A DNA stretch of 64,000 nt from positions 9,779 to 73,778 of the forward strand of contig CANQDG010000002.1 in the NCBI GenBank assembly GCA_947591495.1, in the 5' to 3' direction. The stretch is from an uncultured Bacilli bacterium. Lineage in GTDB: Bacteria > Bacillota_I > Bacilli_A > ML615J-28 > CAG-313. Below the pieces are notes generated by a model. It saw nothing but the letters and a program-made list of their open reading frames with translations, was not told the DNA's origin and did no database searches. Numbering within the stretch: position 1 is the first letter of the stretch; each line of letters opens with the position of its first letter. Below, piece by piece: positions 2,892 to 44,000 of this stretch. Made by a program: the position numbers and the translations under genes.

Positions 2892-2977
2892 GAAATCACC
2901 TCTTAATTTTAGTATACCACTAATTAAGAAAAAATAACGTTTAATTACTTTAATTTATGAAGATTTATTTGATACGT

Positions 2978-3006
2978 TTGACAAATTGGTTCATAATAAT
3001 TATAAT
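2978..3006 (+). promoter_or_regulatory. consensus sigma-A-type promoter
   Basis: TTGACA (2978-2983), an exact 17-nt spacer, then TATAAT (3001-3006). This argues that the downstream CDS starts at ATG 3031 and not at the TTG at 2986. Confidence 0.6.
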
Positions 3007-3030
3007 AGAAAGCGTGTGAGGTATAATAAA

Positions 3031-3573: not shown

Positions 3574-3575
3574 TA

Positions 3576-3606
3576 AAAAAGTCCTTTAGAAATAAAAGGA
3601 CTTTTT
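3576..3606. terminator. bidirectional hairpin terminator
   Basis: aaaaagtcctt (3576-3586) pairs perfectly with aaggacttttt (3596-3606) around a 9-nt loop. It sits between convergent genes. Confidence 0.65.
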
Positions 3607-17718: not shown

Positions 17719-18379
17719 ATACTTAAAAAACTATGGCAATTATACCAAAAGCGAGCTAAAAAAACTTATTGAAGAAAAACGGGTTTTGGTTAATGGAGTA
17801 TTGAAGCCTTTATCATATATTGTAAAAGAAAACGATGAAATCTTAGTTGATGGGCAAAAAATCACCCAAATCCCTAATGTTTATTATCTTTATTATAAAC
17901 CTGTTGGAATTGTTTGTACTAATAATCTTCAAATTAAAGATAATATTATTACGCATTTAAATTTACCTTATCGTGTATTTACGGTTGGCCGCCTTGATAA
18001 AAATACAAGTGGCTTAATTATTTTAACTAATGATGGTATCTTTGCTAATAAACTAATGAATCCTAATAATCATATTGAAAAAGAATATTTAGTTGAAGTT
18101 AAAAATCCTATTACTGATGAATTTTTAACAACGCTTAAAATGCCCCTATTATTAAGGGGTAAAAAAACAACTACCCCGAAAATCGCAGTAGTTGATGAAT
18201 ATCATTTAAAAATTATTATTAACGAAGGCAAATATCATCAAATTAGAAGAATGGTTATTAATGCTTCTAATTACCTTGTTTCTTTAACAAGAATAAGAAT
18301 TGGACCATATGTTTTAGGTAATTTAAAAAGTGATGAATTAAGAAAAATAACAAAAGGAAAAAGATATGAAAAAGATTAA
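17687..18379 (+). CDS. pseudouridine synthase, RsuA/RluB family (S4 domain plus catalytic domain)
   Basis: S4-like LAKYLKNYGNYTKSELKKLIEEKRVLVNG and catalytic GRLDKNTSGLIILTNDG. ORF track starts at 17612. ATG 17687 is preferred because it limits the overlap with the amidase gene to 32 nt. Confidence 0.8.
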   Translation: MNSVGKVHLAKYLKNYGNYTKSELKKLIEEKRVLVNGVLKPLSYIVKENDEILVDGQKITQIPNVYYLYYKPVGIVCTNNLQIKDNIITHLNLPYRVFTVGRLDKNTSGLIILTNDGIFANKLMNPNNHIEKEYLVEVKNPITDEFLTTLKMPLLLRGKKTTTPKIAVVDEYHLKIIINEGKYHQIRRMVINASNYLVSLTRIRIGPYVLGNLKSDELRKITKGKRYEKD

Positions 18380-18857
18380 ATTAATTTTATTTTTAGGTTT
18401 ATTATTTATGGTAGGCTCACTAACATCTTGTTTTCGTGCCAAACCTCAAGAATTTAGCTCACATGGTATGACAGTTACTTTAACTAGTGACTTTCGTGTA
18501 GCAACTGGTGAAAATGTTCAGTTTTTTCTTCAAACTAATAAAATTGGGTTTGCGGGAAATCAAGAATTTAAAGATCAACTTGGCTTAAGTGATCATGAAC
18601 TAGAAAGATATACCAAAGCCGTTTTGACTGCATCTAATTATCAAGATGCACAAATCCAAAATTATGATGATGGTGAAAATAATTTTATGTATGCTTATTA
18701 TACAGCATCACCTAATATGTTTACCTATAAATATATGCTCGTTACGAAAGAAGGTCAAAATGCATATTATTGTCTAAACTTTTGGACTTTAGAAAAAGAT
18801 TTTGATAAATATCAAGACCAAATATTCGAATGGGCTAAAACCATTAAAGTTGAATAA
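18366..18857 (+). CDS. putative lipoprotein (163 aa), function unknown
   Basis: Signal peptide with the lipobox-like LTSC (MKKIKLILFLGLLFMVGSLTSC). No other motif recognised. Confidence 0.55.
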   Translation: MKKIKLILFLGLLFMVGSLTSCFRAKPQEFSSHGMTVTLTSDFRVATGENVQFFLQTNKIGFAGNQEFKDQLGLSDHELERYTKAVLTASNYQDAQIQNYDDGENNFMYAYYTASPNMFTYKYMLVTKEGQNAYYCLNFWTLEKDFDKYQDQIFEWAKTIKVE

Positions 18858-21230: not shown

Positions 21231-22496
21231 GTGAAGTTAAAAATAACTAGTAGAGCAAGGTTAAAAGGCACGATTAAAATAAGTGGTTCTAAAAATGCTA
21301 CCTTACCACTTATGGTATGTGCTCTTTTAACATATGATGAAATTATTCTTCAAAATATTCCCCATATTAGTGATGTTTTAATGATGATGAAGTTATTACA
21401 AGATATTGGTATTAGGGTAATTTATCAAGAAGATGAAAAAACGCTTCGATTACAAAAAGAGGCTTTATTTGTTAACTTAAAAAAAGAAGATATAAAAAAA
21501 ATCAGAGCTTCTTATTATATTATGGGCGCTTTAGTTGCTAATGACCTTAATTTTAAAACACATTATCCTGGTGGATGTTCTTTTAGTAAAAGACCAATCG
21601 ATTATCACCTTGATGCTTTTAAAAAAGTAGGATATCAAATCATCGAAAAAGGCGAAGAATTAATTTTTCAAAAACTTAAAACAAGTGATGATATCATTAA
21701 TTATGACCTACCCAAGCCATCAGTAGGTGCAACTATTAATGTTTTGTTTATTAGTATTTTAAGAAAAGGTATAAGTATTATCCATAATCCCTCTTTAGAA
21801 CCTGAAGTGCAACAAGTAATTGAGATGTTAAAACTAATGGGCGCAAACATTATTCAAGAAAATAACACTCTAAAAATTGAAGGCGTTGATCATTTACATG
21901 GAATAACATATAAGATTATGAGTGATCGCATTGAAGCAGGTAGTTATTTATTACTAGCAGCATCGGTCAAAAGAAGTAAAATTATTTTTCAAAACCTTGA
22001 TTTAACTTATTTAGAAGATGTTTTAAAAACTTTAAAACAAATGGGACTACATTTCAAAAAGCATAACAATCAATTAGTTGTTAAAAAAACTAAACGCTTA
22101 ATAGGTATTAATAAAACCATTGATATTTATCCGGCTTTTCCAACTGATTTACAACAAATTTTAAGCGTTGCATGCCTTAAGGCTAAGAGCCCATCAACTA
22201 TTATTGATAAAATTTATCCCGAAAGATTAACGCATTTAAAAGAAATAAAAAAGGCTAAGGGAATTATTCAATTAGTTAATCATCAAATTAAAATATATCC
22301 ATCTTATAAGCTTGAGGCCGGTTCTTTTTATGCTAGTGATTTACGTTGTGGGTTTGCTTGTATAGTGCTAGCAGTTATGGCAAATGGAACAAGTATTATT
22401 GAAAATGCGGAATTAATTTTAAGAGGTTATGAAAATCTTATTGATAAATTACGGGGTTTGCAAGTCGCTATAGAAGAAGAAAAAGATGACTTTTAA
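21231..22496 (+). CDS. murA: UDP-N-acetylglucosamine 1-carboxyvinyltransferase
   Basis: 421 aa with a GTG start and an AAGGGTGA RBS. ISGSKNATLPLM and the active-site loop PGGCSFSKRPID (Cys retained) are present. Confidence 0.9.
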   Translation: MKLKITSRARLKGTIKISGSKNATLPLMVCALLTYDEIILQNIPHISDVLMMMKLLQDIGIRVIYQEDEKTLRLQKEALFVNLKKEDIKKIRASYYIMGALVANDLNFKTHYPGGCSFSKRPIDYHLDAFKKVGYQIIEKGEELIFQKLKTSDDIINYDLPKPSVGATINVLFISILRKGISIIHNPSLEPEVQQVIEMLKLMGANIIQENNTLKIEGVDHLHGITYKIMSDRIEAGSYLLLAASVKRSKIIFQNLDLTYLEDVLKTLKQMGLHFKKHNNQLVVKKTKRLIGINKTIDIYPAFPTDLQQILSVACLKAKSPSTIIDKIYPERLTHLKEIKKAKGIIQLVNHQIKIYPSYKLEAGSFYASDLRCGFACIVLAVMANGTSIIENAELILRGYENLIDKLRGLQVAIEEEKDDF

Positions 22497-22639: not shown

Positions 22640-22668
22640 TTGCAAAAAAAACGGAAATTTGATAAAAT
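22640..22668 (+). promoter_or_regulatory. extended -10 promoter of the giant gene
   Basis: TTGCAA (22640-22645), a 17-nt spacer, then TGaTAAAAT (TAAAAT 22663-22668). An A/T-rich tract lies upstream and the RBS AGAGGTG lies 8 nt before ATG 22708. Confidence 0.55.
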
Positions 22669-22707
22669 AAGTAGGTAAAGTCATGAAAAAAAAGAGGTGA
22701 AAAAATA

Positions 22708-23410
22708 ATGGATTTTAATCAAATCTTACTATTCGCAGGATTGGGATTACTGTTAATAGTAGTATTATTTGCATTATGGGGCTTTCTTGGTGGCTTAAAG
22801 AGAGAACTATCATGCATAGCCGTTTTCATTGTTTTACTAGTACTAGCTTGGCTAGTTTTTGGAGATTCGGCAACGCTACTTAATGCCAAAGTAGGACAAC
22901 AAGTAGCTGGAATGCTAGATCTTCATGATAGCTCTATTACTACCCTTTGGGATGCAGTACTGGCTTTTGCGAAAGCCAATATTCCAAATGGAGAGGCTTT
23001 ATTAGTAGAAGGTAAGGAAACGTACACCCTTTTCTATGGCATTGCTTCAACCGTTTGCCACGCAGTTGGTTTAATAGTTGGTACTCTTGCAATTTTAATA
23101 ATTTGTCCAATTATTCGTTTAATTACACACTTTATTGGCTTAATTATTAGAGCAGTTAAGAAAAGCAAAGCTAAAAAGAATCCTCCAGTTGAATCAACTG
23201 AGGAAGTAGAAAAGGAAAAAGAAATGGTTGTCGTTTCACGAATTGATGAAGCTGAAGAAGCTGTCTTTGTTAAAGATGCTAACGAAATTCCTGAAAAGCC
23301 TAAAGGCAAAAGACGTCTATGGGGCGCTCTTGCAGGAGCATTAAAAGGAGTTTTCGTTATTATCTTAGTTTGTGTACCACTTTCAGGAATTAGTTCAATT
23401 TTTGGAAAAT
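22708..23410 (+). other. CvpA-like multi-pass membrane domain of the giant protein
   Basis: WGFLGGLKRELSCIAVFIVLLVLAWLV and RRLWGALAGALKGVFVIILVCVPL resemble the E. coli CvpA segments IRGFVREALSLV... and DRVLGVCFGALRGVLIVAAILFFL, as I recall them. A charged insert of about 55 aa (KKSKAKKNPPVESTEEVEKEKE...KPKGKRR) separates the last two helices. Confidence 0.55.
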
Positions 23411-26400
23411 TTACACCTGAAACAAAGGCACTTGTAAAAGACTTAGTCAATGGCGATGCTAAAGTTAATTTAGCAGAATCTAACGATAACCCAGTAGACA
23501 TGGCATTTGAATTTGCTGATGCATATGATCATAGTGCACTTGGCAAATTTGCAAATGGCTCAAGTTTCTTCTTTGGTGAATCTTTCAGTGAAAAATTATT
23601 TGACCAATTACTTAAATTAGAAACTAAAAATCAAGTAATTTATTTAAGTGATGAAATTGAAGTATTCATCGAAGCAGTTAATAATTTAGAAGGTAATTTA
23701 GATTTCGAAAAGATGTCGCGAAATCAATATCGCAACTTCTTAGAAACATTAAAACAAGCCAAACTACCTGCTGAATTAATGCCAGTTGCAATTGAATATG
23801 CCTACGAAGTAGAATCAATTAACAAGATTTTAAAAGAAACTGGTGTTGAGGCTAACTTCTTAGAATTACGTTACAATAACTGGAAACACGATATTGATCT
23901 AGTTTTAAGTGCTTTACAAGAAGCATATGATTTAGATTTATTCCCTATTAAAGATCTAAATTATTTAAAATTAGATACCGAAGAATTAAGAGATGTTGTT
24001 TCTTGCTTAGGTCAAACGGAATTCATGAAAGATGGCTATCCACTAGCTGTTAAGATTCTATTGAATTTACAAGATGTTAAGAAACAAATTGGTACTGTTA
24101 CAATTGAAAAACTTGATGATTTAGATGTTGCAAGTGATTTAGATGCTTTAGTATCAATTTATGATGTATTCAAAAAATTTGGTATTGAAACATTTGAAGG
24201 CTTTGATTTTGACGCATTCATCAAAGATGTTTTAAAAGATGATGTAAAAATCGATTTAGTCTTTGATATTGCTCATCGTGTACTTGATTTACAAATTGCC
24301 CGTAAAGTAGCAGTCCCAGTTGCTTTCGGATTTGCAAAAAATAATGAAAAGTTCCAAGAGATTTTAGCAAAAGCTAAAGTAGAAGAAGATTTTGTTGCAT
24401 TAGAAAAGATTGTTACACTTGATGATTTAGCAACTTATTTAGATGCTGTAAAAGTAGCTTTAGATTTAGTTGATTTAAGCGAATATCCAACTATCAAATA
24501 TGATTATTTCCATCTTGATGCTGATTTAATGGATGATATCATTGATCGTTTATTTGCTAGTAAAGCTACTGATCCAGTTTTAAAAGTTGCAAGTAAAATT
24601 GCTTTATCTTTAGATGTTGTTACTAATAACTTAGGTGATGCGTTAAAAGATGTTGACTTATCAAGCGTTGATTGGAAAACTGAATTAAAAACATTTGTTA
24701 GCATTTATCGTGAATTCTTAAAATTAGGCTTTGAATCACTTGATGATTTTAAAGGTGATAAGATTGATTTAGTTCAAGGCTTAATTGAAGATGAAACTAA
24801 ATATAATGCAATTTCCAATATGTTATCACTTTTAGTTGATGCTCAACTATATACTAAGTTAGCTGTTCCAACAATGCAATATTTCTTAGATAAATATCTT
24901 GATGAGCATTATGTTGCTTTCAACCAAATATTTGATTTAGGTGACATTACTAAAGATGAATGGAAACAAGATTTCCAAACACTTTTAGAAAGTGCAAAAC
25001 TTGTTAACGAATTAAAAGTTTTAGATAACATTAACCCATTTGATTACAAGGCTTTAGATATCGCATCTGATAGCGGTATTGCTAAAATAAAACAATTAAT
25101 TCAAAATATTTTCGAACTTAACATTTTAGGTGATGACCAATTAAAAACTGCTTTACTTGTTGCATCAATTAAACAATTTAATTGGGTAGGTCTTGATGAA
25201 GAATATTTAGAAGATTCAACAAAATGGAATATTCGTTGGACTAATGAAGAAGAAGTATTACTACAATTAGTTGATATCTATTCTAGCGTTGTTAAATTAG
25301 ATGAATTTGATATCTTTGATTTACAATCAACTGATTGGGTAGCATTATTAGAAAGCGATGAATTCTTAGATTATGTTGTTTCTGCTTTAGAAACAGTTGT
25401 TGATTCTGATATCGTTTTAGAATTATTACCAAATTTATTAGATAAATATTTATTACCTAGACTTGAAGCAATCGAAAGTGTAGATGATGAAACATTATTC
25501 AAAGATATTTTTGAAAAATTACCATCTGATGAATTAGTTAATGAAATTATCAAATTAATCGATGTTGTTAAAAACGCTGTTAAAATTAATTTAATTGGCC
25601 ATAAAGCAAATGAAATTGATTTCAGTAATGTTGATGCATTAAAAGCAATCGTTAGTGGCATTTTTGATTCTAAACTTATTCAAGGATTTGAAGGTAGAAT
25701 TATTCGTATCTTATTAAAGGTAACTAAATTACTTGAATTAGATCCTGAATCTAGTGTTTATCAAGAACTTGTTGAAATTGATTATAGCGGTGAAAAAGAA
25801 GCTTTACTAAATTTCCTTGATGCTATCGCACCAGTATTACAAGATCCTGATTTCAAAATTTTAAACGATGAAGGAAAATTAAACTTAACTTTAAAATTCT
25901 GGAGTGAAAATGAAAAAGCTCAAAGCTTATTAAATGGTTTAAAAGCTTTACTTGGTAGTTATCCTGACAATGATGAAACAAGTTCAAAATTAATCGAAGT
26001 ATTACTTCCTGCTATCTATGGTCAATATGTTGATGGCAAAGATATTATTCCAAGCGATTATAAAGAATTAATCGATGAATTAGACATTGCTAATGCTACA
26101 GGTGAACAATTAACAAGTGCATTACGTCGTTTAATCTTTGTTGCAGAAGAATTAGTAAAGATTGATGCTCAAAGCTTATTAGATGGTGGCGATATGGAAA
26201 TCGCATCTGAAAAAGCAATTGATTCATTCAAAGGTATTTTAGATGCTCTTCATGATATCGAATTATTCCGTGGACATGAAGCAAAAGTTCTTGCTTGGGG
26301 CGTTAATTTTGTTGCAAAACAATTAAAGATTAATGTTGATCCTATTACTGATGAATTTGATAATGTTGATTGGTTAGGCCAAAATGAAGTTTATAAAGAT

Positions 26401-29400
26401 ATCCTTGATGATTTAGGATTATTCTTAAGAAATAACGATATTATTACACTTAACCAATTAAAAGACTTCATCAAAGATAAGAAGTATAATACAAGTGAAT
26501 TCATTACAAAAGAAAATATGAATGATTTACTTGATATCGTTGACAAAGTTGTTGATGTTCAAGTAATCGATGCAGTAATGCCACTTGTTGTAAAATATGG
26601 CGTTCAACTCTTAAATGATCGTAACGTTATTAATCTTGATTATGTTAAAGATTTCACCAATGAAGAAATCAATCATGATGTTCATAGCATCGTCGCTATT
26701 GCTCATAAATTAGTTGATGAATTAGATATCGTATCATATTACAATGCTAAATTTGATGGCGATATGCCTCTTCCTAATGTAGAAGTTGTTCAATCATTAG
26801 TTGATGATATTTTTGAATTAAATATCATTACAAAAGCTGAAGGTAGACTTGGTAATGCTATTTTTGATATGGTAGCAAGCAGAACTAATGTTGATGAAAC
26901 ATTATCATTAACAGCTGAAGACTTTAAATTTGCTAGTATTGATTGGTCAGAAGAAAAAGAAGTATTCAAAGACTTAATTGCTAAAGCTTACGATTTCTTA
27001 GAAGTTAATAACATTACAACAATGACTAACCTTCAAAGATTCTTTAAAGAAAAATGGTATACTGAACCTGCTATCTTAAGAGATGAAACTGGTTATGTAG
27101 CTAGTGATGTTTTAAGAGTTTTACAAAATTCACAACTTGTTGAAAATGTGATCGTTAAATTATATCAATATGGCATTGATTATGTAAGCAATAATAAATC
27201 TTTCAAATTACCATTTGATATTAGTTATATGAGAGAAATGGAAGCTGCTGAATTATTAGCTGATCTTGGTGTTGTTGCTGATATCGCTGATAAAGCTGTT
27301 AAATTCGGTATTATGAGTTACTTAGCAGATGGTGATATTCATAACATTGATATAACTATTCTTGCTGATGCTGTTGAAGAAGATTTAACTAGATTAAATA
27401 TTCTTGCTCATTATGGCCAAAGATTAATTGGTGATGCCGCAAATTATGGTTTGAATTATCTTGAAAGCGTAACTCATGGTGACTTTGTATTATCACAAGA
27501 AAATATCAATGAAATTGATTATAAACATGAATTAGTTGTTCTTGCCGATACGATTAGATCTGCTCAAGCATTCCTTGATGCTAAAAATATTAGATTCTTT
27601 AGTGATATCTTTGACTTCGTTGATGATGTTAGAGTTAATAATCCACTTAAGAATAAAGCATTCTTTGATCGTGAAACTTATGATGCTTTAGTTGATATTG
27701 CATCTGCTGCTTCTAATTTACAATTATTAGAATTATTAGGCCCACAACTTTTAAATCATGCTATTCGTTATGCTGAACAAGTAAAAGTTGATCTTTCATT
27801 CTTAGATACAGAAGAATACACTGGTGCTTTCTTTGTTGAAGATATTAGAGTAGTATTAGAAATGGCTGATTATGGCTATGACTTTGGTTTAATTGATCTT
27901 GCATTTGATAAGACTTTATATACACTTGAGTTTGAAGCATTATGTAATATGTTAGATTCTGTTCCTGAACTTCATCTTGCACAATTATACTATGCTGATT
28001 TAGTAGCTTTAGGTGTTAATAATGGCTTAAAAGCTGTTAAGATTGAAAAGAGTGTTGATCGTTCATTATTTGCTGAAATAGATCTTAACACTGAAATTAA
28101 AGAATTAAAAGAAGTATTAATGGCTATAAAACCATTACTTGCTGAAAAAGAAGTTGTAACTCTTACTAACTTAATTGATTTAGTTAAGGCTCAATATCCT
28201 GCTAATACTTACAAGATGGCTGCTTTCTATGATATAGCAACAGGCGAATTACTTGAAAAAGTTGTATATGAAGCTGCTGATTTACAAACACTTGCTGTAT
28301 TATTACCAAAAGCATTAAATTATGGTGTTGATCGTTTAACTCAAGTTAACTTAAGTTTCCTTAAAGATTCATTCACTAGTGAAGAATTAGCAAGTGATCT
28401 TAAAGTTGTATCAGGATTAATCGTTCCTGCTATTAAAGCCGAATTAGTAGGTCTTGCTTTCGGTGCTAAAGTTAATGATTTACCATTACATTTCGATGTT
28501 TACAATGAAATGTTAGATGTTGTAAAAGATCTTAACATTTTACAAGCTAAATATGGTGAGTTTGTAAGCATGGGTACAAATAGTGTTCTTAAAGCATTAA
28601 AGTCAACACAAGAAGTAACTGCTGATTTATTCAGTGATGTTGTTCTAGCCGATGAAGCTGAAGCTTTAAAGAACGTTATAAACCGTGTTGCAACTCTTGC
28701 TGAAGAATTAGATGCTAAAACAGTATATGATGTTAGATACATTATTACTGATCTTATCCAAAACAAACAATATAAAGAAGAAAAATATACTAATAGAACA
28801 ACTGTAACAGAATTATTAGACATTGTAGATGCTGCATTAGATGTTCAAACTGTTCAATTATTATTAACTCCAACTATCACTACTCATTTAAGTGAATTTG
28901 CTTCATTACATGGTGTAGATCTTGCCTTCTTATTTAGATATGCTACAAGAGAAGCATTAGTTGAAGACTTAGATAGTATTGTTGTAACATTAAGAGATTT
29001 AGTTGATTATGGTATGTTAGAATTTGCATTACGTGATGGTAGCATTGATGTAACAGATATTACACCAATTAAAGATGCTATTGATCGCCTTGCTCATTTA
29101 CATATTTTAGAAAATAATCATGCTGATGTTGTCTTCTTAGTATTAGATAAACTTGGTATTGATAAAACAGGCGTTGATTTAAGTAATATTGATTTAGATC
29201 AAGAAGTTGCAAGCGTTCAAGATATTCTTGAACAAGCTAAAGAAATCTTATTGATGGAAGACGTTGATCAATATGCAGAAATCAAAGGTATCGATTTCAA
29301 TAAATATTTGAAACTTGATAGTAAGACTAATGAATATATTGATGTCTTTGCACCATTACTAAAAGCTCTTGCAAAAGATCAATTAGTAGAAAGATTAGGA

Positions 29401-32400
29401 CTTGCCGTTTCTCGTAAATACCTTGCTAACTTTGCTTCAAAATATGAAGGATTAGCTGATATTTATAACATTTATACAGATGGAAAACAATTAACTAGTG
29501 ACTTATCTGATTTAGCAGATATCTTATTAGAAATAAGAGCAATTGATCTTGTTTCTTCAATCGCAAGTGATAATCCATATCCATATGATAAAGTTGAAAA
29601 CATCTCAAAGATTATTAAATTATTATTAAGCTTGAATTACTTCAACATTGATGAAAATAGAGCTGACGATTTCATTAAAGCTTTAGATCCACATGTTAAA
29701 GCTGATTTAAGTAGCGTTGATGCTAAGGGCGTTGATTTAAGAAGTGATGCTGATATCTTTGCTGCAATGTATGAAGATTTAGCTAACATTTTAACTCATG
29801 AATCATTCCCTATTAAGAGCAAAAATGATTTGAACCCAGTTAAATTTAATAATAATTTATTAAAATCATCACTTGTTTATGAAAGTGCTGTTGATGCTCT
29901 TCTTAAATTTATGGATACAACTGTTTATAACAAGACAGCTGCTGGACTTATCATGCTTACATTCCCTCTTGTTGAAAAATATGCTCCTGAATATTATAGT
30001 GCTTTAGATTTAGCTGTACTTACTAAAGAAACTATTACCGAAGATTTACCACTTTTAAAAGATATTCTCTTAAAAGTAGACGCAATGGATTTAGGCAAAT
30101 TAGCTGAAGAAAAATCAGTATTTACAGCTGAGGTTGAAGATTTAATCAATACTGTAATTGATAGTATTGCTAAATCACAAATTCTTGCTAACCATGGTAA
30201 TGCTGTATTCGAAGTTACAATGGATAAATTTGTTAATGGTAAGACTCTTGGCAATATTGTTATCCCAACTGGTGCAATCGTTGCTGACGGCGTTGATTTT
30301 GTTGAAGATAAAGATTTATATAAACGATTAGTTAGCAAAATAATTGGATTATTAAATAGACAAGATGTTTATACTATTCAAGAATTAAAAGATTATGTAA
30401 ATGCATTTAAAGCAAATGCTAAAGCTGAATTATTAAGCTTTGTATCATTAGAAGAAAATGATACAGATGTGGCTGACATTCTTAAGATCTTAACTGATAT
30501 TACCATTGTTGAAGTAAATGGTTTATCAATTATGAATAATATTGTTCATCCAGCATTACCAAGTGCTTTAGGTAAAGTTATTGACTTTACAATGTTTACA
30601 AAAGATGAATTTGCAAGCGACTTAAAGGCTGCTGCCCTTATGGTAAGTCAATTCAATCAATTTGGTCTTGCATCAATTGCTCGTAATGAAAACATCAATT
30701 ACAATCAAGCTAAGTTAGTTCAAGCAATGCTTGAAAATATAGTATCTACTAACTATGTAAAATATAACTTAGATTCATTAATTGATTACGTTGATGGATT
30801 CAATTTACCAATTAAGTTTGAAGCCTTAAAAGCTGATGAATTTGATTATAAACATGATGCTAATGTTCTTGCACAAGTATATGAACAAATGATTCCATTC
30901 TTGACTTCTAATCATAATCCACTTAAGACAAGAAGAGATATTAAGGATTTAATTAGTAATAACTTTAAATTAGATACCGATTTGAAACAAGTAATGAAAG
31001 AATTCAAAAATGATTTACTAGATGCTTATGATGAACTTGTTCAAATGACTGCTATTCCACTATTACTTAATGAATTAGCAAATTATGGTAAAGCTTTAAC
31101 CCCAACTAACTACAAACATCTATTTGATTTACTTGCAATTGATGAATTAACATATGCTGAAAAAGCAGATGATGTAATGCAAACTGCTAGAATCCTTAGA
31201 TTAGTTGTTGACTTAGAATTATACAAAGTAGTAACAACAAAAGATTATAATTTTGCAGGCGACATTCTTTCAACTTTATATGGTAAAGAAGAAAGTAAAG
31301 TTACTTTAATTACTAATCTTGTTGATGAAGTTTATGCACTTAATGTTTTAAGAAATCGTTCTGATTTAATGCTTGAATTATTAAATGCTCTTGAAACTGA
31401 TACTACTGAAGTAGATTTAAGTGATGTTGATTGGGATAACGAAGTTACTCAATTAAAAGTTGTTATTGCAAATGGCTTAGAATTATTATTAGAATATGAT
31501 ATTCAAACTATTCAAAATGCCAAAGATTATGCGCGCGATTTATTGAACTTGAGGTCAGCTAATGCCATCTTAGATGAACTTAAAGCAATTAATAATAAAG
31601 TTAATGTAAGCCTTGGCGTAGAAATCTTCGAGGCCATCGATGAATCGAAGGCATTTGATCAAATTTTCAAACCTCTTTATAATAAATACGTATTTACTAA
31701 ATTACCTGCTAAATTCGTTGAAGTTGGTGATTTAAGCGAATACAAACCTAGCGATTTAGCTGAAGATATTCATTCTCTCGCAATTGCTGCCCGTGCTTTA
31801 TTAAATATTAAAGATTTAGAAGGCACTGTTAAAGATAATAGAGATTCTGCAGAGTGCATTTCCCAAGCACAAGCAATTATCAAAGCTTTATTCTCATTGA
31901 ATTACTTAGATTTGAAGAAACAAGCATTAGTTGATGTTGCAGCAGACATTAATGCATCATTCAAACTTGATACTTTAGATGTAACTGGTGTTAACTTCAA
32001 AGCTGATGGTGAAATTATTGCTGAATATGCAGAACAAATCTTAATGATTTTAACTGAAACAAATATTTTACGTGCTATTAGATTTGACCAATTTGGTGAT
32101 ACATATCTAATGTCAGATGTTGTTGAATTATACAATGGTTTAGTTGAAACAACCTTATTTGATGCAGTTTCTGTATGGGCATTCAGAGCTCATGTTGAAC
32201 CAAGAATTGAAGACATCGAACAATTGAAGAAATATTCATTCACAGATGAAAAGATTCATTTAATTGGTGTTAAATTCGGTGAAACATTAGATGCTATGCT
32301 TGATATGGGCTTCTTCAGTAATTATGGTGTTGATTTCACTAATAAAGAAAATACTGATCGCTTATTTGTATTATTAACAGATGTCTTTGAACCAAGCGAT

Positions 32401-34845
32401 AAAGTTAGCAAATTAGTTGATAAGTTTAAAGCTAATATGGCAGAATTTGGTGTTATTGACCTTTCTTATGAAGGCATTAATGCTAAACCTGAATTTGATG
32501 CTTTAAAAGCTGTTATGTCAAGCGTATCGTCATTTGCTAAGACATATATGAATAAGTTAACATCTGATTTCACGGTTTTAGTTGATCCAACATTCCAAGA
32601 TGATCTTGTAAATGTATTTGAAAAAGTCTTTGCTTCAAGAATGCTTGCTCAACTTGCTCTTCCTCTTATGAGTGGTTCTGTAAGAATCTTAACACAAGAT
32701 ACTGAAACATTACATCTATTAGATAACCTTGACAATGATGAATTCTTAAATATCTTCTTACCAGATTTATTTGACTTATTTGCTGCTGCTGATAAATTAG
32801 ATTTATTGAATAAGAAGGTAAATTACAATGACGCAAGCGCTATCGTTGATGCATTTGATGTATTAGTACATAAAGATTCATTCAAAGATTACGTAAGCGA
32901 AATTGTTAAATTTGCAATGGTATTTGTAGGCATTAATGTTAAAGATGTTGATTTAAGTAAAGTAGATTGGGATAAAGAATATCAAGCAATCGATAAAGCC
33001 TTAAATGGTGCTTTAAAAGAACCTCTAAAAGATGTTAAGGCTTCTGATCGTAAGACATTCTTAAATGAAACATTCTTAAATGCTCTTGCTATAGCAATGC
33101 CAGAATTCAATGACTCAGACTTAATTCCATTACTTTCTCGTCAATTATTAGAATTCATGGCCAATAAAGTTGCTGGCGATAGCTATGATACATATGTTAA
33201 CCGTCTATTTGACCCTGATTATACTGATGAATTATTAGTCGAAGACTATAAGGCATTCCCTGAAATCTTAAAATTAGTAGCTAAAGCAGACTTATTTGCT
33301 GAAGGTGGCTTAACTAATGATAAATATCCTATCATTGGTGATCTACTTGAAAAATTATTAGCACTTAACTTTGCTGAAGGTATTGAACCTAGATTATTAG
33401 AAACTTGCTTCAAACGTACATCTGCTCTTGATTCTTATGATGTTGATTTTGAAACAGTTCTTGACTGGGCTGCTGAAAGAGCTGCTTTCGCAGAAGTATT
33501 ACGTAAATTAGGTGCCTTTGCTTCATTCGAAGATGTTGATGTTAAAGATACTGAAATGCAAGATAATTTTGTTGCTTTAGTTGATGCTATGAGTAAATCA
33601 GAAATTGGCCGTCAATTATTACCACAAATTTATGATCAAAATATCGAACCTAAGATTGGTAATTTAGGTGAAGATTATCAAGGTGTTATTGACTTTAATG
33701 ATCCTGAATTTACGCCTGATGTATGGGCTGATGAATTTAGAGCTTTATTTGATGCATATAATAAATTAGATAAGATGGGCCCTATTGAAGAATTAGATAT
33801 GAAACAAAAACAAACACAAGATGATTTTGTTGGTTTAGTTGGTATCGTTGAAAAATCAATAATTGGTCGCAAATTATTTAAGAAAATTTGGGCATCTCAA
33901 ATTGCAACTAAATTAGGTGAAGATTATGCTGATATCATTGATTTAGAACAAGAAGTTTGGTCTAATCAATTTACTGATATGTTTGAAGTTTACACAGCAT
34001 TCACTAAATTTGCTTCATTAGATGATATTGATATGTCATCTCAAGAAGATCAAAATACATTCTTAGATGCTGTTGAAGTTGCTGCTAAGACCGAAGTTGG
34101 TCAAAAGTTCTTCAAGAAGATTTATGGTTTACATATCAAACCTGCTCTAAGTAAGCTTGGTGAAGATTATGCTGAAATCATTAATGTTGAAACATTAGCT
34201 CCTGAGATGTGGAAAGATGAATTTGCTAAGTTATTTAATGCTTACAATAAATTCTCACAAGAAGCAGCCTCATTAACTATTGATGATTCAATTGAATTAA
34301 TGAATATCTTATTCGGTACTGATATGGATCATAAAGATGATGGTATCAAAGAAGTTGTTGCACATCCTGACAAATGGGTTAAAAAAGTTCTTGATCCTGA
34401 AAAATCATACTTTACATTACCTGATCATGCTAAACTTGATAATGAAACAGAACGTGATTGGTTAGCTGAAGCTTATGCTTTAAAAGCTGTTCTAGAAGCT
34501 ATGAAGGCATTCGCTGATGAATCACCTGAATATGGTGGCAAATTCAATTATGATGTTGCATATAAATCAACTGATAGCACTAAGATTAAAGCTTTATTCT
34601 TAGCTGTATCTAAATGTAAAGCTGTTCGTGGTAGTATGGTTGAAATGATTTTTGATGCTACTGCTGATGTTCCTGGTATGCAAGAACAATTAGAAACATT
34701 AGGTGTTATTGATGAAACATTAAAAGGCGAAAAAACTGCTTATGAAAGCGATCCAACTCATTTCAATGAAGCATATTGGACAGAAGATAGAATCACTAAC
34801 TTAGCAGAAGGTATTGCTAGAGCTAACGAAGAATTAAATGCATAG
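22708..34845 (+). CDS. giant (4,045 aa) membrane-anchored, acid-rich helical-repeat protein of unknown function
   Basis: Single uninterrupted ORF of 12,138 nt with its own promoter, RBS and terminator. It has N-terminal TM helices with CvpA-like motifs and then about 3,800 aa of D/E/L/V/K-rich sequence made of diverged repeating modules. I recognise no enzymatic motif, LPXTG, S-layer or known adhesin domain. Confidence 0.9.
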   Translation: MDFNQILLFAGLGLLLIVVLFALWGFLGGLKRELSCIAVFIVLLVLAWLVFGDSATLLNAKVGQQVAGMLDLHDSSITTLWDAVLAFAKANIPNGEALLVEGKETYTLFYGIASTVCHAVGLIVGTLAILIICPIIRLITHFIGLIIRAVKKSKAKKNPPVESTEEVEKEKEMVVVSRIDEAEEAVFVKDANEIPEKPKGKRRLWGALAGALKGVFVIILVCVPLSGISSIFGKFTPETKALVKDLVNGDAKVNLAESNDNPVDMAFEFADAYDHSALGKFANGSSFFFGESFSEKLFDQLLKLETKNQVIYLSDEIEVFIEAVNNLEGNLDFEKMSRNQYRNFLETLKQAKLPAELMPVAIEYAYEVESINKILKETGVEANFLELRYNNWKHDIDLVLSALQEAYDLDLFPIKDLNYLKLDTEELRDVVSCLGQTEFMKDGYPLAVKILLNLQDVKKQIGTVTIEKLDDLDVASDLDALVSIYDVFKKFGIETFEGFDFDAFIKDVLKDDVKIDLVFDIAHRVLDLQIARKVAVPVAFGFAKNNEKFQEILAKAKVEEDFVALEKIVTLDDLATYLDAVKVALDLVDLSEYPTIKYDYFHLDADLMDDIIDRLFASKATDPVLKVASKIALSLDVVTNNLGDALKDVDLSSVDWKTELKTFVSIYREFLKLGFESLDDFKGDKIDLVQGLIEDETKYNAISNMLSLLVDAQLYTKLAVPTMQYFLDKYLDEHYVAFNQIFDLGDITKDEWKQDFQTLLESAKLVNELKVLDNINPFDYKALDIASDSGIAKIKQLIQNIFELNILGDDQLKTALLVASIKQFNWVGLDEEYLEDSTKWNIRWTNEEEVLLQLVDIYSSVVKLDEFDIFDLQSTDWVALLESDEFLDYVVSALETVVDSDIVLELLPNLLDKYLLPRLEAIESVDDETLFKDIFEKLPSDELVNEIIKLIDVVKNAVKINLIGHKANEIDFSNVDALKAIVSGIFDSKLIQGFEGRIIRILLKVTKLLELDPESSVYQELVEIDYSGEKEALLNFLDAIAPVLQDPDFKILNDEGKLNLTLKFWSENEKAQSLLNGLKALLGSYPDNDETSSKLIEVLLPAIYGQYVDGKDIIPSDYKELIDELDIANATGEQLTSALRRLIFVAEELVKIDAQSLLDGGDMEIASEKAIDSFKGILDALHDIELFRGHEAKVLAWGVNFVAKQLKINVDPITDEFDNVDWLGQNEVYKDILDDLGLFLRNNDIITLNQLKDFIKDKKYNTSEFITKENMNDLLDIVDKVVDVQVIDAVMPLVVKYGVQLLNDRNVINLDYVKDFTNEEINHDVHSIVAIAHKLVDELDIVSYYNAKFDGDMPLPNVEVVQSLVDDIFELNIITKAEGRLGNAIFDMVASRTNVDETLSLTAEDFKFASIDWSEEKEVFKDLIAKAYDFLEVNNITTMTNLQRFFKEKWYTEPAILRDETGYVASDVLRVLQNSQLVENVIVKLYQYGIDYVSNNKSFKLPFDISYMREMEAAELLADLGVVADIADKAVKFGIMSYLADGDIHNIDITILADAVEEDLTRLNILAHYGQRLIGDAANYGLNYLESVTHGDFVLSQENINEIDYKHELVVLADTIRSAQAFLDAKNIRFFSDIFDFVDDVRVNNPLKNKAFFDRETYDALVDIASAASNLQLLELLGPQLLNHAIRYAEQVKVDLSFLDTEEYTGAFFVEDIRVVLEMADYGYDFGLIDLAFDKTLYTLEFEALCNMLDSVPELHLAQLYYADLVALGVNNGLKAVKIEKSVDRSLFAEIDLNTEIKELKEVLMAIKPLLAEKEVVTLTNLIDLVKAQYPANTYKMAAFYDIATGELLEKVVYEAADLQTLAVLLPKALNYGVDRLTQVNLSFLKDSFTSEELASDLKVVSGLIVPAIKAELVGLAFGAKVNDLPLHFDVYNEMLDVVKDLNILQAKYGEFVSMGTNSVLKALKSTQEVTADLFSDVVLADEAEALKNVINRVATLAEELDAKTVYDVRYIITDLIQNKQYKEEKYTNRTTVTELLDIVDAALDVQTVQLLLTPTITTHLSEFASLHGVDLAFLFRYATREALVEDLDSIVVTLRDLVDYGMLEFALRDGSIDVTDITPIKDAIDRLAHLHILENNHADVVFLVLDKLGIDKTGVDLSNIDLDQEVASVQDILEQAKEILLMEDVDQYAEIKGIDFNKYLKLDSKTNEYIDVFAPLLKALAKDQLVERLGLAVSRKYLANFASKYEGLADIYNIYTDGKQLTSDLSDLADILLEIRAIDLVSSIASDNPYPYDKVENISKIIKLLLSLNYFNIDENRADDFIKALDPHVKADLSSVDAKGVDLRSDADIFAAMYEDLANILTHESFPIKSKNDLNPVKFNNNLLKSSLVYESAVDALLKFMDTTVYNKTAAGLIMLTFPLVEKYAPEYYSALDLAVLTKETITEDLPLLKDILLKVDAMDLGKLAEEKSVFTAEVEDLINTVIDSIAKSQILANHGNAVFEVTMDKFVNGKTLGNIVIPTGAIVADGVDFVEDKDLYKRLVSKIIGLLNRQDVYTIQELKDYVNAFKANAKAELLSFVSLEENDTDVADILKILTDITIVEVNGLSIMNNIVHPALPSALGKVIDFTMFTKDEFASDLKAAALMVSQFNQFGLASIARNENINYNQAKLVQAMLENIVSTNYVKYNLDSLIDYVDGFNLPIKFEALKADEFDYKHDANVLAQVYEQMIPFLTSNHNPLKTRRDIKDLISNNFKLDTDLKQVMKEFKNDLLDAYDELVQMTAIPLLLNELANYGKALTPTNYKHLFDLLAIDELTYAEKADDVMQTARILRLVVDLELYKVVTTKDYNFAGDILSTLYGKEESKVTLITNLVDEVYALNVLRNRSDLMLELLNALETDTTEVDLSDVDWDNEVTQLKVVIANGLELLLEYDIQTIQNAKDYARDLLNLRSANAILDELKAINNKVNVSLGVEIFEAIDESKAFDQIFKPLYNKYVFTKLPAKFVEVGDLSEYKPSDLAEDIHSLAIAARALLNIKDLEGTVKDNRDSAECISQAQAIIKALFSLNYLDLKKQALVDVAADINASFKLDTLDVTGVNFKADGEIIAEYAEQILMILTETNILRAIRFDQFGDTYLMSDVVELYNGLVETTLFDAVSVWAFRAHVEPRIEDIEQLKKYSFTDEKIHLIGVKFGETLDAMLDMGFFSNYGVDFTNKENTDRLFVLLTDVFEPSDKVSKLVDKFKANMAEFGVIDLSYEGINAKPEFDALKAVMSSVSSFAKTYMNKLTSDFTVLVDPTFQDDLVNVFEKVFASRMLAQLALPLMSGSVRILTQDTETLHLLDNLDNDEFLNIFLPDLFDLFAAADKLDLLNKKVNYNDASAIVDAFDVLVHKDSFKDYVSEIVKFAMVFVGINVKDVDLSKVDWDKEYQAIDKALNGALKEPLKDVKASDRKTFLNETFLNALAIAMPEFNDSDLIPLLSRQLLEFMANKVAGDSYDTYVNRLFDPDYTDELLVEDYKAFPEILKLVAKADLFAEGGLTNDKYPIIGDLLEKLLALNFAEGIEPRLLETCFKRTSALDSYDVDFETVLDWAAERAAFAEVLRKLGAFASFEDVDVKDTEMQDNFVALVDAMSKSEIGRQLLPQIYDQNIEPKIGNLGEDYQGVIDFNDPEFTPDVWADEFRALFDAYNKLDKMGPIEELDMKQKQTQDDFVGLVGIVEKSIIGRKLFKKIWASQIATKLGEDYADIIDLEQEVWSNQFTDMFEVYTAFTKFASLDDIDMSSQEDQNTFLDAVEVAAKTEVGQKFFKKIYGLHIKPALSKLGEDYAEIINVETLAPEMWKDEFAKLFNAYNKFSQEAASLTIDDSIELMNILFGTDMDHKDDGIKEVVAHPDKWVKKVLDPEKSYFTLPDHAKLDNETERDWLAEAYALKAVLEAMKAFADESPEYGGKFNYDVAYKSTDSTKIKALFLAVSKCKAVRGSMVEMIFDATADVPGMQEQLETLGVIDETLKGEKTAYESDPTHFNEAYWTEDRITNLAEGIARANEELNA
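33547..34275 (+). repeat. three tandem coding repeats of about 78-83 aa near the C-terminus of the giant protein
   Basis: Units start at 33547, 33796 and 34030 (D-x-x-M/Q...Q-D/N-x-F). Each contains (E/T)(I/V)G(R/Q)(K/Q)(L/F)..(K/Q)I(Y/W) and then LGEDY..(I/V)I(D/N)...W..(E/Q)F...F..Y(N/T)(K/A)(L/F). The LGEDY codons recur at 33664, 33913 and 34156. Confidence 0.85.
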
Positions 34846-34898: not shown

Positions 34899-34930
34899 TA
34901 AAGTCCAGCAATCTAATTTGCTAGACTTTA
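34899..34930 (-). terminator. hairpin terminator downstream of the exonuclease gene
   Basis: aaagtccagcaa (34900-34911) pairs with ttgctagacttt (34918-34929) with one mismatch. An A run on the plus strand gives a T run on the minus strand. Confidence 0.55.
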
Positions 34931-40464: not shown

Positions 40465-40929
40465 TTAATTATTAAGGTATAACAAAATAGAAAAGATCGA
40501 AGCAACTATGCCCCAAAGAACATATGGTAGTAAAAGAAGGGATATTTTTTTTGATAACAAAAGTGATTCAATGGTTGTTAAAGTAATCGTTAAAAAGCTA
40601 AGAAGAGTAACGATATAGCCAAGAAATAAACTTTGTTTAGCAAAGAAAAAATAAGGAAATGTAAAACTAATTAGATAATTAACAACTAAAAAAATCAAAA
40701 CTCTGGCAAAATCTTTTCGATTAACTTCTTTTCGGTGATCAAATAAATAGACAACAAAAAGGCTTAATAAAATATAAATAACCGTCCATACAATAGGAAA
40801 AACAATACTAGGAAGTTTTGGACCTTTAAGACTATTATAAAATTCTAAATCAGTTTTAAAAATTAATGATGGCAGAAAATATAAAAACAATACCAAAGCA
40901 AATAAAATAATTTTTTTAATCCATTTCAT
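40465..40929 (-). CDS. TspO/MBR family membrane protein
   Basis: 154 aa with 5 TM helices. FYNSLKGPKLPSIVFPIVWTVIYILL follows the TspO pattern (Y..L.KP...P...F.VW..LY). Confidence 0.6.
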   Translation of the reverse strand: MKWIKKIILFALVLFLYFLPSLIFKTDLEFYNSLKGPKLPSIVFPIVWTVIYILLSLFVVYLFDHRKEVNRKDFARVLIFLVVNYLISFTFPYFFFAKQSLFLGYIVTLLSFLTITLTTIESLLLSKKISLLLLPYVLWGIVASIFSILLYLNN

Positions 40930-41073: not shown

Positions 41074-44000
41074 ATGAAAAAGGGTAAGAGTATATTAATA
41101 TTAATTTTCTTTTTCTTATTTTCGATATTGATTATTCAACCTAAAGTTGAAGGAGCTAACAATTTAGTAGCAATAAAAGTGCACGGAACCAATAGCGATT
41201 TAAAATATCGTAATTCAACCGAAACTGTTATGCGTTTAGCTGAATATAATTATCCAACAAGCCAATTAAGAGCAGTATGGGTAACTCCTTTAACAGGTGA
41301 TATAAGTTCATATAAGTCAGAAAGTGCTTTTAAACAAGAATTAAATGAAGTTTTAGATAACATGGAAAAATGGGGTATGAATACATTAGTCTTTCATGTT
41401 CGGACTCATAATAATGCGATGTATCGCTCTGAATTAAATCCACTTGCTTCTTATTTTAAAGGAGTTGATTTTGATGTTTTCGATCCACTTGCATGGCTAA
41501 TTGATGAATGCCATTCACGTGGCATTGAATTTCATGCTTGGCTTAATCCATATCGGGTTAGTACAACTGGTAATATTAATCAAAGTAAAGCCGAAGATCT
41601 TCCTGCGGTTAATCCCGCAAATGATCCAGAAAACTTATTACAAGTTAATTCAAGTATTATTTTAGACCCAGGTATTCCACTTGTTAGAGAATTCTTAGTT
41701 GATACATGTATGGAATTAATTGAAAATTATGACGTTGATGCTATCAATTTTGATGATTACTTCTATATTAGTGGAGCTGATGATGCGGCAACAAGAGCTA
41801 AATATAATACGGAAAATTTATCACTTGAAAACTTTAGACGGGCATCAGTTAATAGCTTTATTGAGGCTTTATCAAAAAGTATTAGAGCATACAATACAGC
41901 TAACAATAAGGCCGTTCAATTAGGTATTGCTCCATCTGGAATTTATCGTAATGGTGGTTATGTTGCATCACCTACATATGATGCAAACGGAAATCTTACT
42001 AGTCCAACTTATTCTGATACTAGTGGAATGGAACATTATGGAAATTACTTGTATGCAGATACATTAAACTGGATCAATAATGAATGGATTGATTATATTA
42101 TGCCTCAACTTTATTGGGCTATTGAACATACTACCGCAAGTTATGCTGCTCTTACTAGATGGTGGAGTTGGGCTGTAAAAAATAAAAAAGTAAACTTCTA
42201 TGCTGGCCTTGGTATATATATGGCAATCGATAGTGGCTCTAGTGCTCAATACTGGCAATATAATGATAACGAAATTGAACTACAACTTTTAAATGGTGGT
42301 CAATATGAAGAATTTGGTGGTGCTTGTTTTTATCGTTATGGTAGTTTAATTAGCGGTTATAATAACCACCCAGTTATTACTAATGCAATTGATTTAATTT
42401 CTAATGATTATTGGCAAAAAAGAGTGCCAGGAGCTGTTAGTAAATATTATGCCCCTCTTATTCCTGAAATTGCGCCAACAAATGTAATATATGATTCTGC
42501 AACTAATTTACTTTCCTTTGATGAAGTAAAGGATTGTAGAGGCTATATGATCTATAAAGTTCCTAAAGGTCAAATCCTTGATAAAAACAATATTGATCAT
42601 GTATATCAATATATTCAAACTAATCAAATTACAATCGATGATGTTGCCTCATACGATTATTATGTTGCATCAGTTAACAAAGCCAATGAAACAAGTGAGG
42701 CTGTTGCATTAACGGCGAAAATGACATATAAAGATGTTATTTTAGCTATTGATAATTTACCAGAAGTTATTACTTATGAAAATAAAGAACAAGTTGAACA
42801 AGTTAGAAAGTTATATGATAGTCTACCAGAAGAAGAAAAAGTTCAAGTTACTAATTACCTTAAATTAACTGAAGCTGAAGCCATCATAATTAAATATGAA
42901 GCCCTTCAAGATACTTTAACTAATTATATTAAGACCCTTGATTTACATATTAAAACATCGCGTAAAATTGATTTACCAACTAATATGAGTTTACAATATA
43001 AAGATGCATCTGATCAAGCTTTATATAATATTGAAACTGGTGAAAAATTAAAGAACTATTTAGCGGTTAAAGAAATTTGCTTGATTATTAGTATTACCGA
43101 AGATAATTTAACAGTAAGTCAAGAAATAATGGTTAATATTGGTTATACTAGCAAAACTCAACAAGCTTTATTCTATCGTAATGACCCAAGCAGTATGAGT
43201 CCTGATGATGAAGGGGCTTATGGAGCATCCCATAGTAGTTATATTGGTTGGTCAGGTCATACGCTAGTAGTAGAAGATGTTATTTTATATATTGCAAGAA
43301 CTAACTATTTTGAAATAACTGATAGTAGCAATATTGAACCATGTCATTTCTCATCGGTTGCGGGGGTATATGTAAATAAAACATCTAGCCCATTAACCCT
43401 AAAAATGACTGATGCTTTTGAAAAGAATTCATCTAATAATGATGGATATATCGTTATTGGCAAAAATGAAGTCAAAGAAGTATCCCATGGCTTTGATGCT
43501 AATAAAACGATTACTTTAGAAAAAGATGATACTTTAATTATTTTTAGATATTTAGATGGTAGTATTACTAATAATCCCCTTGTTCCAGTAACCAAAATAA
43601 AGGTTGGAACTAAAGCTTATATTGATGAAGAAGTTGAGCTAAATGATGAAGAAAAAGTTCAAGCAGTAATTGAGTTAATTAATACCATTCCTGCTGATAT
43701 TACTTTAGAAACTGAATCACTTTTAAATCAAATAAAAGAAGTCTATGATGCATTAGATGAATCATTAAAACCATTAGTAACAAATAGTCAAAAATTAACA
43801 GATGCTTTAGATAAACTTGCTAAACTTAAAACCGAATTAGCAAACAAAAAGCAAGAAGCTATTTCTGCTATTCAAAACCATCTTGATTTAGATAATTATA
43901 GTCCAGCTAGTCAACAACAAATTAATAATATTTGCGCAAGTGCTGCTATTAAAATTAATAATGCTACATCACTTGAGGAAGTTGAAAGAATTTTTAACGA

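Follow-up and report, generated by a model that had tools for sequence, protein, structure and literature searches.

The window analysed here is a 64,000-nucleotide (nt) stretch of genomic DNA from an uncultured Bacilli bacterium (contig CANQDG010000002.1 of assembly GCA_947591495.1). On its plus strand, at positions 22708..34845, lies a single uninterrupted open reading frame (ORF) of 4,045 codons that starts with ATG and encodes a giant protein of 4,045 amino acids (aa) with a predicted mass of 455 kDa. The protein begins with a four-helix membrane domain that resembles CvpA, passes through a conserved juxtamembrane region into a long array of all-alpha modules and ends in a set of shorter repeats. 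Upstream of the start codon, a consensus scan picked out a promoter-like element (TTGCAA, a 17-nt spacer and a TG-extended TAAAAT; 22640..22668, plus strand), which is a pattern match only, and a Shine-Dalgarno sequence, AAGAGGTG, can be read at 22692..22699 (plus strand), its end 8 nt 5' of the ATG. Downstream, a scan for terminator-like elements called a hairpin with a 13-bp stem and a T-run on the minus strand (34899..34930); it too is a pattern match only, and sits between the giant gene and a convergent RNase_T-family gene.

An earlier, sequence-only reading of the window had proposed that this ORF is one continuous gene, and the statistics bear this out. With the base composition of the region (30.6% G+C, which gives a stop probability of 0.084 per random codon), the probability of encountering no stop over 4,045 codons is ~1e-154. 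The remaining five frames across the ORF contain 150-710 stops each, and the G+C content of its three codon positions (49/27/16%) provides a strong coding signal. When one genome of each GTDB species was scanned, 19 related loci emerged, with 31% to 69% identity to the window protein over aa 1-700. In all 19 the frame is open over every available codon (2,783-4,249), and at one locus, L009, a stop is reached after 4,244 aa. Two metagenome fragments have the giant gene in two pieces, L001 (4680-6655; 655 and >3,616 aa) and L002 (74-3493; 1,053 and 2,233 aa); because the frame is open in 19 other assemblies, these breaks are probably assembly or sequencing frameshifts. The notion that the ORF is a misassembly or a non-coding open frame, for which the two split genes could be cited, is effectively refuted already by the absence of stops, the strong codon-position asymmetry, the fact that 19 independent assemblies, 31-69% identical at the amino-acid level, keep the frame open, and the 23 complete giants of 3,857-6,731 aa known in public collections.

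Architecture of the giant protein

Exactly four strongly hydrophobic 19-residue segments are present in the giant protein (Kyte-Doolittle 2.4-2.9). All of them lie in aa 1-235, where a multi-pass membrane N-terminus had been proposed, and the next most hydrophobic 19-mer anywhere in the protein reaches 1.83. We refer to this CvpA-like four-helix membrane domain (22708..23412, plus strand), delimited by hydropathy, AlphaFold2, Pfam and hhalign, as the anchor. It consists of transmembrane helices TM1 (aa 6-28) and TM2 (aa 34-52), an acidic and predicted outer loop (aa 53-106), TM3 with an extension (aa 107-148) and TM4 (aa 204-229). AlphaFold2 placed helices at aa 3-27, 32-51, 104-156 and 202-232 in a model of low confidence (predicted local distance difference test, pLDDT, 59.7). 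The 55-aa insert with lysine-rich flanks that had been noted before the last helix is present at aa 149-203 (23152..23316, plus strand), between KKSKAKK and KPKGKRR. It forms a charged loop that is predicted to be cytoplasmic and, with pLDDT values of 27-35, disordered. Alignment A5, which was assembled from the anchors of 27 family members and also used for hhalign, indicates that the insert is restricted to larger members; it is missing from 19/19 shorter relatives and from one incomplete giant-type sequence. Antisense to the membrane-domain portion of the giant gene, and within that gene, runs an ORF of 155 aa (23034-23501, minus strand). Its apparent conservation in related loci is due only to that of the sense strand, and it was rejected both as a separate match to the anchor profile and as a gene, which it almost certainly is not.

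The anchor is followed by a conserved juxtamembrane region (aa 236-471; 23413..24120, plus strand), defined by conservation, a module hidden Markov model (HMM) and AlphaFold2, in which degenerate first modules begin at about aa 300. The module HMM gave partial matches at aa 307-423 and aa 415-533, and the AlphaFold2 model has pLDDT values of 68-84 over aa 300-410. Across the 23 complete giants, aa 1-400 is the top-scoring part of the protein and is 57-67% identical in the closest orthologs; aa 800-1,200 scores above average and most later parts score lower.

From aa 472 to aa 3584 (24121..33459, plus strand), self-BLAST, HMM searches, alignment A3 and AlphaFold2 resolve the protein into 17 tandem all-alpha modules of ~185 aa (range 162-196 aa). 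Self-comparison revealed a period of 186-190 aa at 23-34% identity, and an iterated HMM recovered 21 module copies with E-values of 1e-11 to 1e-44, those in the 17-module array scoring 1e-20 to 1e-44. We set module boundaries by the start motif [IV]D[WYLF]xxE, and alignment A3 holds the resulting 17 non-overlapping modules; a conserved VDLSxVDWxxE-like motif at the junctions can be read directly from the sequence. When the 17 modules were supplied as the alignment, AlphaFold2 modelled the module at aa 1411-1602 as a nine-helix all-alpha bundle with a pLDDT of 84.3 and a predicted TM-score of 0.76, the last 9 residues falling below a pLDDT of 50. The amphipathic helical modules of ~190 aa that had been suggested are thus supported by 21 HMM copies and a confident all-alpha model of one of them.

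Beyond the array, four to five short repeats of ~82 aa (~78-85 aa) occupy aa 3585-4000 (33460..34707, plus strand), as judged from self-BLAST, the module HMM and motif positions. They match the module core (HMM positions 10-108), and their start motifs fall at aa 3585, 3670, 3748, 3832 and 3916; in the self-BLAST, aa 3604-3689 and aa 3768-3851 are 40% identical (E 2e-20). A search for a separate tip domain at the C-terminus, in common with the short paralogs described below, brought up further module-like repeats only. The whole protein contains 13.4% L, 10.1% D, 8.7% A, 8.2% V, 7.6% K, 7.4% E, 2.2% P and 0.22% C, with I also among the dominant residues. These counts agree with the acid-rich, cysteine- and proline-poor character first ascribed to it. 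The array has a net charge of -319 and an isoelectric point of 4.4.

Searches for known domains returned nothing beyond the anchor. Apart from the Colicin_V match of the anchor described below, Pfam gave only chance-level matches at E <=1 for the whole protein, for six pieces and for single modules. Neither the FIVAR, GA and DUF1542 modules of Ebh-type proteins (whole protein or single modules) nor SLH, LysM, SH3b, cadherin or Ig-like domains were found by Pfam. NCBIfam yielded no match to the giant protein, PADLOC anti-phage models no family at E <=0.01, and a regular-expression search for LPXTG, NPxTN, GGxGxD (RTX), Walker A and HExxH no occurrence. Among PDB sequences, the module profile reached a best E of 0.57 and the whole protein had no match. 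Foldseek searches with the module model gave a best E of 2.2 against the PDB, with TM-scores <=0.28, and a best E of 1.7 against the viral models of BFVD. Our search of the literature for CvpA-giant fusions, or for giant proteins of RF39/RFN20, returned nothing relevant. The claim that the protein lacks a known functional domain therefore stands against Pfam, NCBIfam, PADLOC, PDB sequences and Foldseek. Its anchor, module fold and sequence family are undescribed; giant repeat proteins on Gram-positive surfaces are known already. Prophage, defence and toxin readings of the locus were rejected, given the lack of a PADLOC match or of a toxin or nuclease domain and the housekeeping nature of the flanking genes.

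Relation of the anchor to CvpA

We next consider the membrane domain, in which CvpA motifs had been recognised by eye. In a Pfam search with aa 1-240, Colicin_V (PF02674) was the best family, at 18.9-19.8 bits (E 0.0008-0.0015), a score that lies below the Pfam gathering threshold of 29.3 bits. The match in the window protein spans positions 5-52 of the 144 in the profile, corresponding to the first two helices. Similar sub-threshold matches recurred in 6/18 orthologs (best E 3.9e-4) and in 3/8 short relatives, where they scored 16-21 bits and reached profile positions 1-88 and, in P0092, 4-125. The expectation that a profile search would point to Colicin_V was thus correct as to the top-ranking family and failed at the cut-off. 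A word-indexed search with the anchor profile retrieved family fragments only and was uninformative on CvpA.

Profile-profile comparison was more telling. Aligned by hhalign with 10 diverse CvpA sequences, all proteobacterial and taken from plasmid and chromid records, alignment A5 gave a probability of 94.4% (E 9.4e-8). The probability was 84% with a narrower set of 14 close CvpA sequences from a search with E. coli CvpA, which comprised Enterobacterales only at an identity of at least 79%. Controls with seven unrelated membrane proteins, a reversed CvpA alignment and ten column-shuffled CvpA alignments stayed at <=1.7%, with the exception of an MscL-like ORF at 49%. The greedy alignment of A5 with CvpA is collinear over four helices and both motifs, and pairs ...GGLKRE... 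with ...RGFVRE... and RRLWGALAGALKGV with DRVLGVCFGALRGV. The motifs common to the anchor and CvpA are G-basic-E, which follows TM1, and, where TM4 begins, R-x-x-G-x-x-x-G-x-x-(K/R)-G. The R and first G of the latter are largely retained: conservation of G206 reaches at least 90% in the family, and the 18 orthologs all have R203. The full CvpA signature DRxLGxxxGxxRG was not found around TM4: its aspartate, described as almost 100% conserved in CvpA (bioRxiv 10.1101/2020.09.25.314492), occurs in 9/10 CvpA sequences vs 1/27 family members (P0017) and is absent from the other 26.

The resemblance to CvpA is accordingly upheld by the hhalign probability and by both aligned motifs, and membership of the CvpA family is not, given the sub-threshold score and the missing aspartate. 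As judged from sequence, the anchor is a distant homolog with CvpA architecture whose membership of the Pfam family is not demonstrable. Anchor and CvpA share four transmembrane helices and a C-terminus of varying length that is predicted to be periplasmic or extracytoplasmic. They differ in that CvpA has ~160-200 aa and the giant protein 4,045 aa, and in that larger family members add a charged insert of 40-60 aa before TM4 and a longer outer loop.

Two of the related loci contain an additional ORF of 217 aa that was matched by the anchor profile (L020:1173-1826 and L021:891-1544). These ORFs were rejected as CvpA and resemble MscL. The anchor profile hit the MscL-like ORF with an hmmsearch E of 2.8e-6 among 397 ORFs, and the 49% hhalign probability extends over 92 columns. 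The similarity could stem from true remote kinship or from composition. CvpA itself is reported to resemble MscS/MscL in HHpred comparisons (bioRxiv 10.1101/2020.09.25.314492).

Relatives and genomic neighbourhood

A search with aa 1-700 found six unnamed metagenomic fragments only. To the 19 loci of the genome scan, a wider family was added by running the module profile exhaustively with HMMER over 1.84 billion representative proteins: this returned 115 matches, 43 of them below 1e-30, none bearing a protein name in any source. Among these are 23 complete giants (3,857-6,731 aa, 18-34 module matches) and 19 shorter relatives (~850-2,300 aa, 2-8 module matches). The four-helix anchor starts 42/42 of the matches of at least 700 aa that retain their N-terminus, so the fusion of a CvpA-type domain to the modules is conserved. 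All 19 loci come from metagenome-assembled genomes or metagenome-derived assemblies. Their carriers are labelled as uncultured Bacilli or Mollicutes, 'Staphylococcus sp. CAG:324', Acholeplasmatales or an 'Anaeroplasma' genome, and those with informative names derive from human, rabbit or other faecal samples. Genes for the sporulation proteins YabP and YabQ lie near the locus in L025 (155-912), which hints that some carrier lineages keep sporulation genes.

In the window, the upstream neighbour of the giant gene is a murA homolog (21231..22496, plus strand) encoding UDP-N-acetylglucosamine 1-carboxyvinyltransferase (NCBIfam NF006873, 367 bits at a cut-off of 297). A murA homolog is found directly upstream of family genes in the related loci that have enough upstream sequence. 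At 16/19 loci and on two further contigs, the gene order is an aspartase/fumarase-family lyase (minus strand), murA, a short paralog and the giant (all plus strand), and the intergenic gaps are tiny or overlapping. The short paralog has 824-1,311 aa, the same CvpA-like anchor and 3-6 modules, with 1-5 module matches. It lies ~5.7-7.2 kb into L004-L006, L008-L012 and L014-L021, and is also present at L001:408-2882, L023:8001-11549 and L025:10001-13483; L001 and L006 have an extra 422-aa ORF between it and the giant. The window and its closest relative, L003, are without a short paralog at this place, and murA and the giant gene are direct neighbours there with a 212-nt spacer. The murA homolog of L003 (8530-9810) is split into adjacent ORFs of 210 and 215 aa by a frameshift or an assembly error. 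Two distant relatives, L024 (2,323 aa) and L027 (2,123 aa), have no murA adjoining, and on that account we regard the link to murA as suggestive, not compelling.

Several other features of the window were recorded. A 163-aa ORF without a Pfam match (18366-18857, plus strand) keeps its position after an RluA-type pseudouridine synthase gene in L003, L004, L008 and L023. At 41074-45513 (plus strand) is a second large ORF, of 1,479 aa, in which Pfam detects a GHL10 glycosyl-hydrolase-like domain (aa 64-383, E 2e-46); its remaining ~1,100 aa gave no match in Pfam, NCBIfam or PADLOC. Two neighbouring paralogous genes on the minus strand (7172-8512 and 8818-10089) encode AAA_14 + DUF4143 ATPases. 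A TspO/MBR family gene lies at 40465-40929 (minus strand), and in the region 46413-50541 (plus strand) a 406-aa DUF2229/HGD-D-like ORF comes after the gene for a double acyl-CoA dehydratase activase of 974 aa (TIGR00241).

Topology and proposed role

Among the 27 relatives, the loop after TM1 carries a mean net charge of +2.3 and is positive in 27/27, and the loop before TM4 has a mean of +5.6 and is positive in 26/27. The loop between TM2 and TM3 averages -3.6 and is negative in 25/27; the N-terminus and the residues that follow TM4 have a weak negative charge on average. Under the positive-inside rule, such a charge bias predicts a four-pass anchor with both termini outside (N-out/C-out), which would place the array outside the cytoplasm. 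In the low-confidence AlphaFold2 model, aa 104-156 form one continuous helix, not a hairpin. Four helices and an outer C-terminus, the architecture of CvpA, are therefore what hydropathy, AlphaFold2 and the loops of 25-27/27 relatives predict for the anchor. For CvpA, the four passes and a periplasmic C-terminus of variable length are themselves a prediction (bioRxiv 10.1101/2020.09.25.314492).

Amino-acid composition was examined as a second line of evidence. After TM4, cysteine makes up 0.13% of residues vs 1.21% in the 39 other ORFs of the window (P = 2e-14). Low cysteine (median 0.32%), D+E of ~17% and K+R of ~7-8% are kept in the 23 giants and in the 19 shorter relatives. Firmicutes are known to exclude cysteine from their exported proteins, as reportedly described by Daniels and colleagues in 2010. 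The array after TM4 is thus probably extracytoplasmic, in line with the placement first suggested for the giant acidic part: the positive-inside pattern recurs in 25-27/27 relatives and the array is depleted of cysteine.

We propose that the giant protein is a membrane-anchored polyanionic fibre of the cell envelope that acts as a structural spacer or shield at the cell surface, and put the probability of this at roughly one half. The CvpA-like bundle would hold the protein in the membrane. Given the predicted N-out/C-out topology, TM4 may act as a signal-anchor, and the 3,800 residues that follow would be translocated by the Sec machinery to the outer side of the membrane. There, the chain would fold into ~17-20 compact all-alpha bundles and 4-5 short repeats linked by short conserved junctions. 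Its charge of about -319 would keep the array stretched and hydrated, and a polyanionic rod or brush, extended and semi-rigid, may result. If each module is taken to add 4-5 nm, such an array would be ~80-100 nm long and would reach through and beyond the wall. Most likely, it would space or shield the cell surface by steric and electrostatic means in a size-dependent way, and the layer so formed could retain cations and exclude bile, cationic peptides, phage or neighbouring cells. How far it reaches would depend on the number of modules, 18-34 in orthologs, and a second, shorter tier would come from the short paralog.

Known surface giants provide partial parallels. Staphylococcal Ebh and Embp are membrane-anchored proteins whose repeated helical bundles form a rod; Ebh has an N-terminal signal peptide, a C-terminal membrane anchor and FIVAR/GA-type three-helix modules of ~126 aa. 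By contrast, the anchor of the present protein is N-terminal and has four helices, and no Ebh-type Pfam module was matched. Giants of the Ebh/Embp type are repeat proteins of ~1.1 MDa, and giant surface proteins of S. aureus shield its surface in a size-dependent manner (PMC6548404). Giant1-3 of Apilactobacillus kunkeei are extracellular proteins of 3,000-8,000 aa with alpha-helical repeats, not described before according to their authors, that are predicted to form stiff rods ~0.2 um long (PMC12863079). They resemble the present protein in their giant size, their occurrence in Bacilli and their mostly alpha-helical repeats; they differ in that they lack a transmembrane domain and have a beta-solenoid at the N-terminus and an SH3b-like wall-binding domain at the C-terminus. 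The exhaustive module search showed no similarity to Giant1-3, its matches being confined to the present family.

The design of the anchor has a counterpart as well. MarP (Rv3671c) of M. tuberculosis joins a four-helix N-terminal membrane region to a periplasmic serine protease domain. The likeness lies in the design, in which a four-pass anchor of CvpA type continues from its last helix into a large C-terminal domain outside the cytoplasm; the NCBIfam search showed no sequence relation to MarP. In MarP this domain is a protease of ~200 aa, whereas in the giant protein it comprises ~3,800 aa of non-catalytic helical repeats.

Several points weigh against the envelope-fibre proposal. Every carrier is an uncultured metagenome-assembled genome. 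The topology is derived from the positive-inside rule and by analogy, the AlphaFold2 model of the N-terminus is poor (pLDDT 59.7), and low cysteine could stem from repeat duplication and not from export. The geometry and length of the rod are extrapolated from one modelled module. The linkage to murA, absent at L024 and L027, may be plain synteny, and our domain searches found no wall-binding, ligand-binding or catalytic domain hinting at a specific role.

An unlikely alternative is that the protein is a specific adhesin whose distal modules or short C-terminal repeats would bind mucin, host cells or a partner microbe, the array being a stalk. The informatively named carriers are all gut metagenome-assembled genomes, protein length differs between species, and most distal parts are less conserved than the first 400 aa, as with many adhesins. 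However, the domain searches turned up no lectin, Ig-like, beta-solenoid, vWA or other known binding domain, the C-terminus is made of further repeats related to the module with no distinct tip domain, and a strong, uniform negative charge would be unusual in a ligand-specific tip.

We think it doubtful that the membrane domain is the functional unit, with a CvpA-type role in envelope stress or transport or as a channel, and the array its regulating tether or sensor. The homology of the anchor to CvpA, its 49% hhalign probability with an MscL-like ORF and the reported CvpA-MscS/MscL similarity would fit such a role, as would the finding that conservation is highest in the anchor and juxtamembrane region; through the array, strain in the envelope could then be passed to a helix bundle of MscL-like or CvpA-like type. 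However, only 1/27 family members has the CvpA aspartate, the similarity to MscL is weak and perhaps compositional, the biochemical activity of CvpA is itself unknown, and a regulator of 3,800 aa would be extravagant.

Less plausible still is a cytoplasmic, membrane-tethered scaffold with an N-in/C-in or five-pass topology, cytoskeleton-like in the manner of the EzrA-type spectrin-like proteins. All-alpha, repetitive, acidic arrays are known in cytoplasmic scaffolds, and the length of the hydrophobic segment at aa 107-148 would allow it to be read as two helices. This arrangement would require both strongly basic loops to face outside, contrary to the charges in 26-27/27 relatives; moreover, AlphaFold2 gives a single helix at aa 104-156, there are only four hydrophobic peaks, and cysteine is tenfold below that of the neighbouring, mostly cytoplasmic, proteins.

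The envelope-fibre proposal also has a more ambitious form, which we offer as a speculative and rather unlikely one: the protein would be an envelope organiser, of a type not recognised before, in gut Bacilli with reduced genomes, in which a CvpA-like and faintly MscL-like four-helix module is mechanically coupled to a polyanionic fibre of ~100 nm. The fibres would form a layer that replaces roles of teichoic acids or an S-layer, or would transmit envelope strain to the membrane module. Long and short versions encoded beside murA could then build a layer for cation storage, for spacing and as a barrier to bile and peptides.

At ~12 kb per carrier genome, the giant gene is a large investment. 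The 115 representatives among 1.84 billion proteins make the family a compact and tractable target for structural work and metaproteomics and as a surface marker. CvpA occurs across bacterial phyla and matters in gut colonisation and bile resistance by an unknown mechanism (bioRxiv 10.1101/2020.09.25.314492). Here, a CvpA-like module appears to serve as the anchor of an enormous, probably extracytoplasmic array, and this supports the idea that CvpA's C-terminus acts outside the cytoplasm. If true, a role as envelope organiser would provide the first structural and functional handle on CvpA-type domains.

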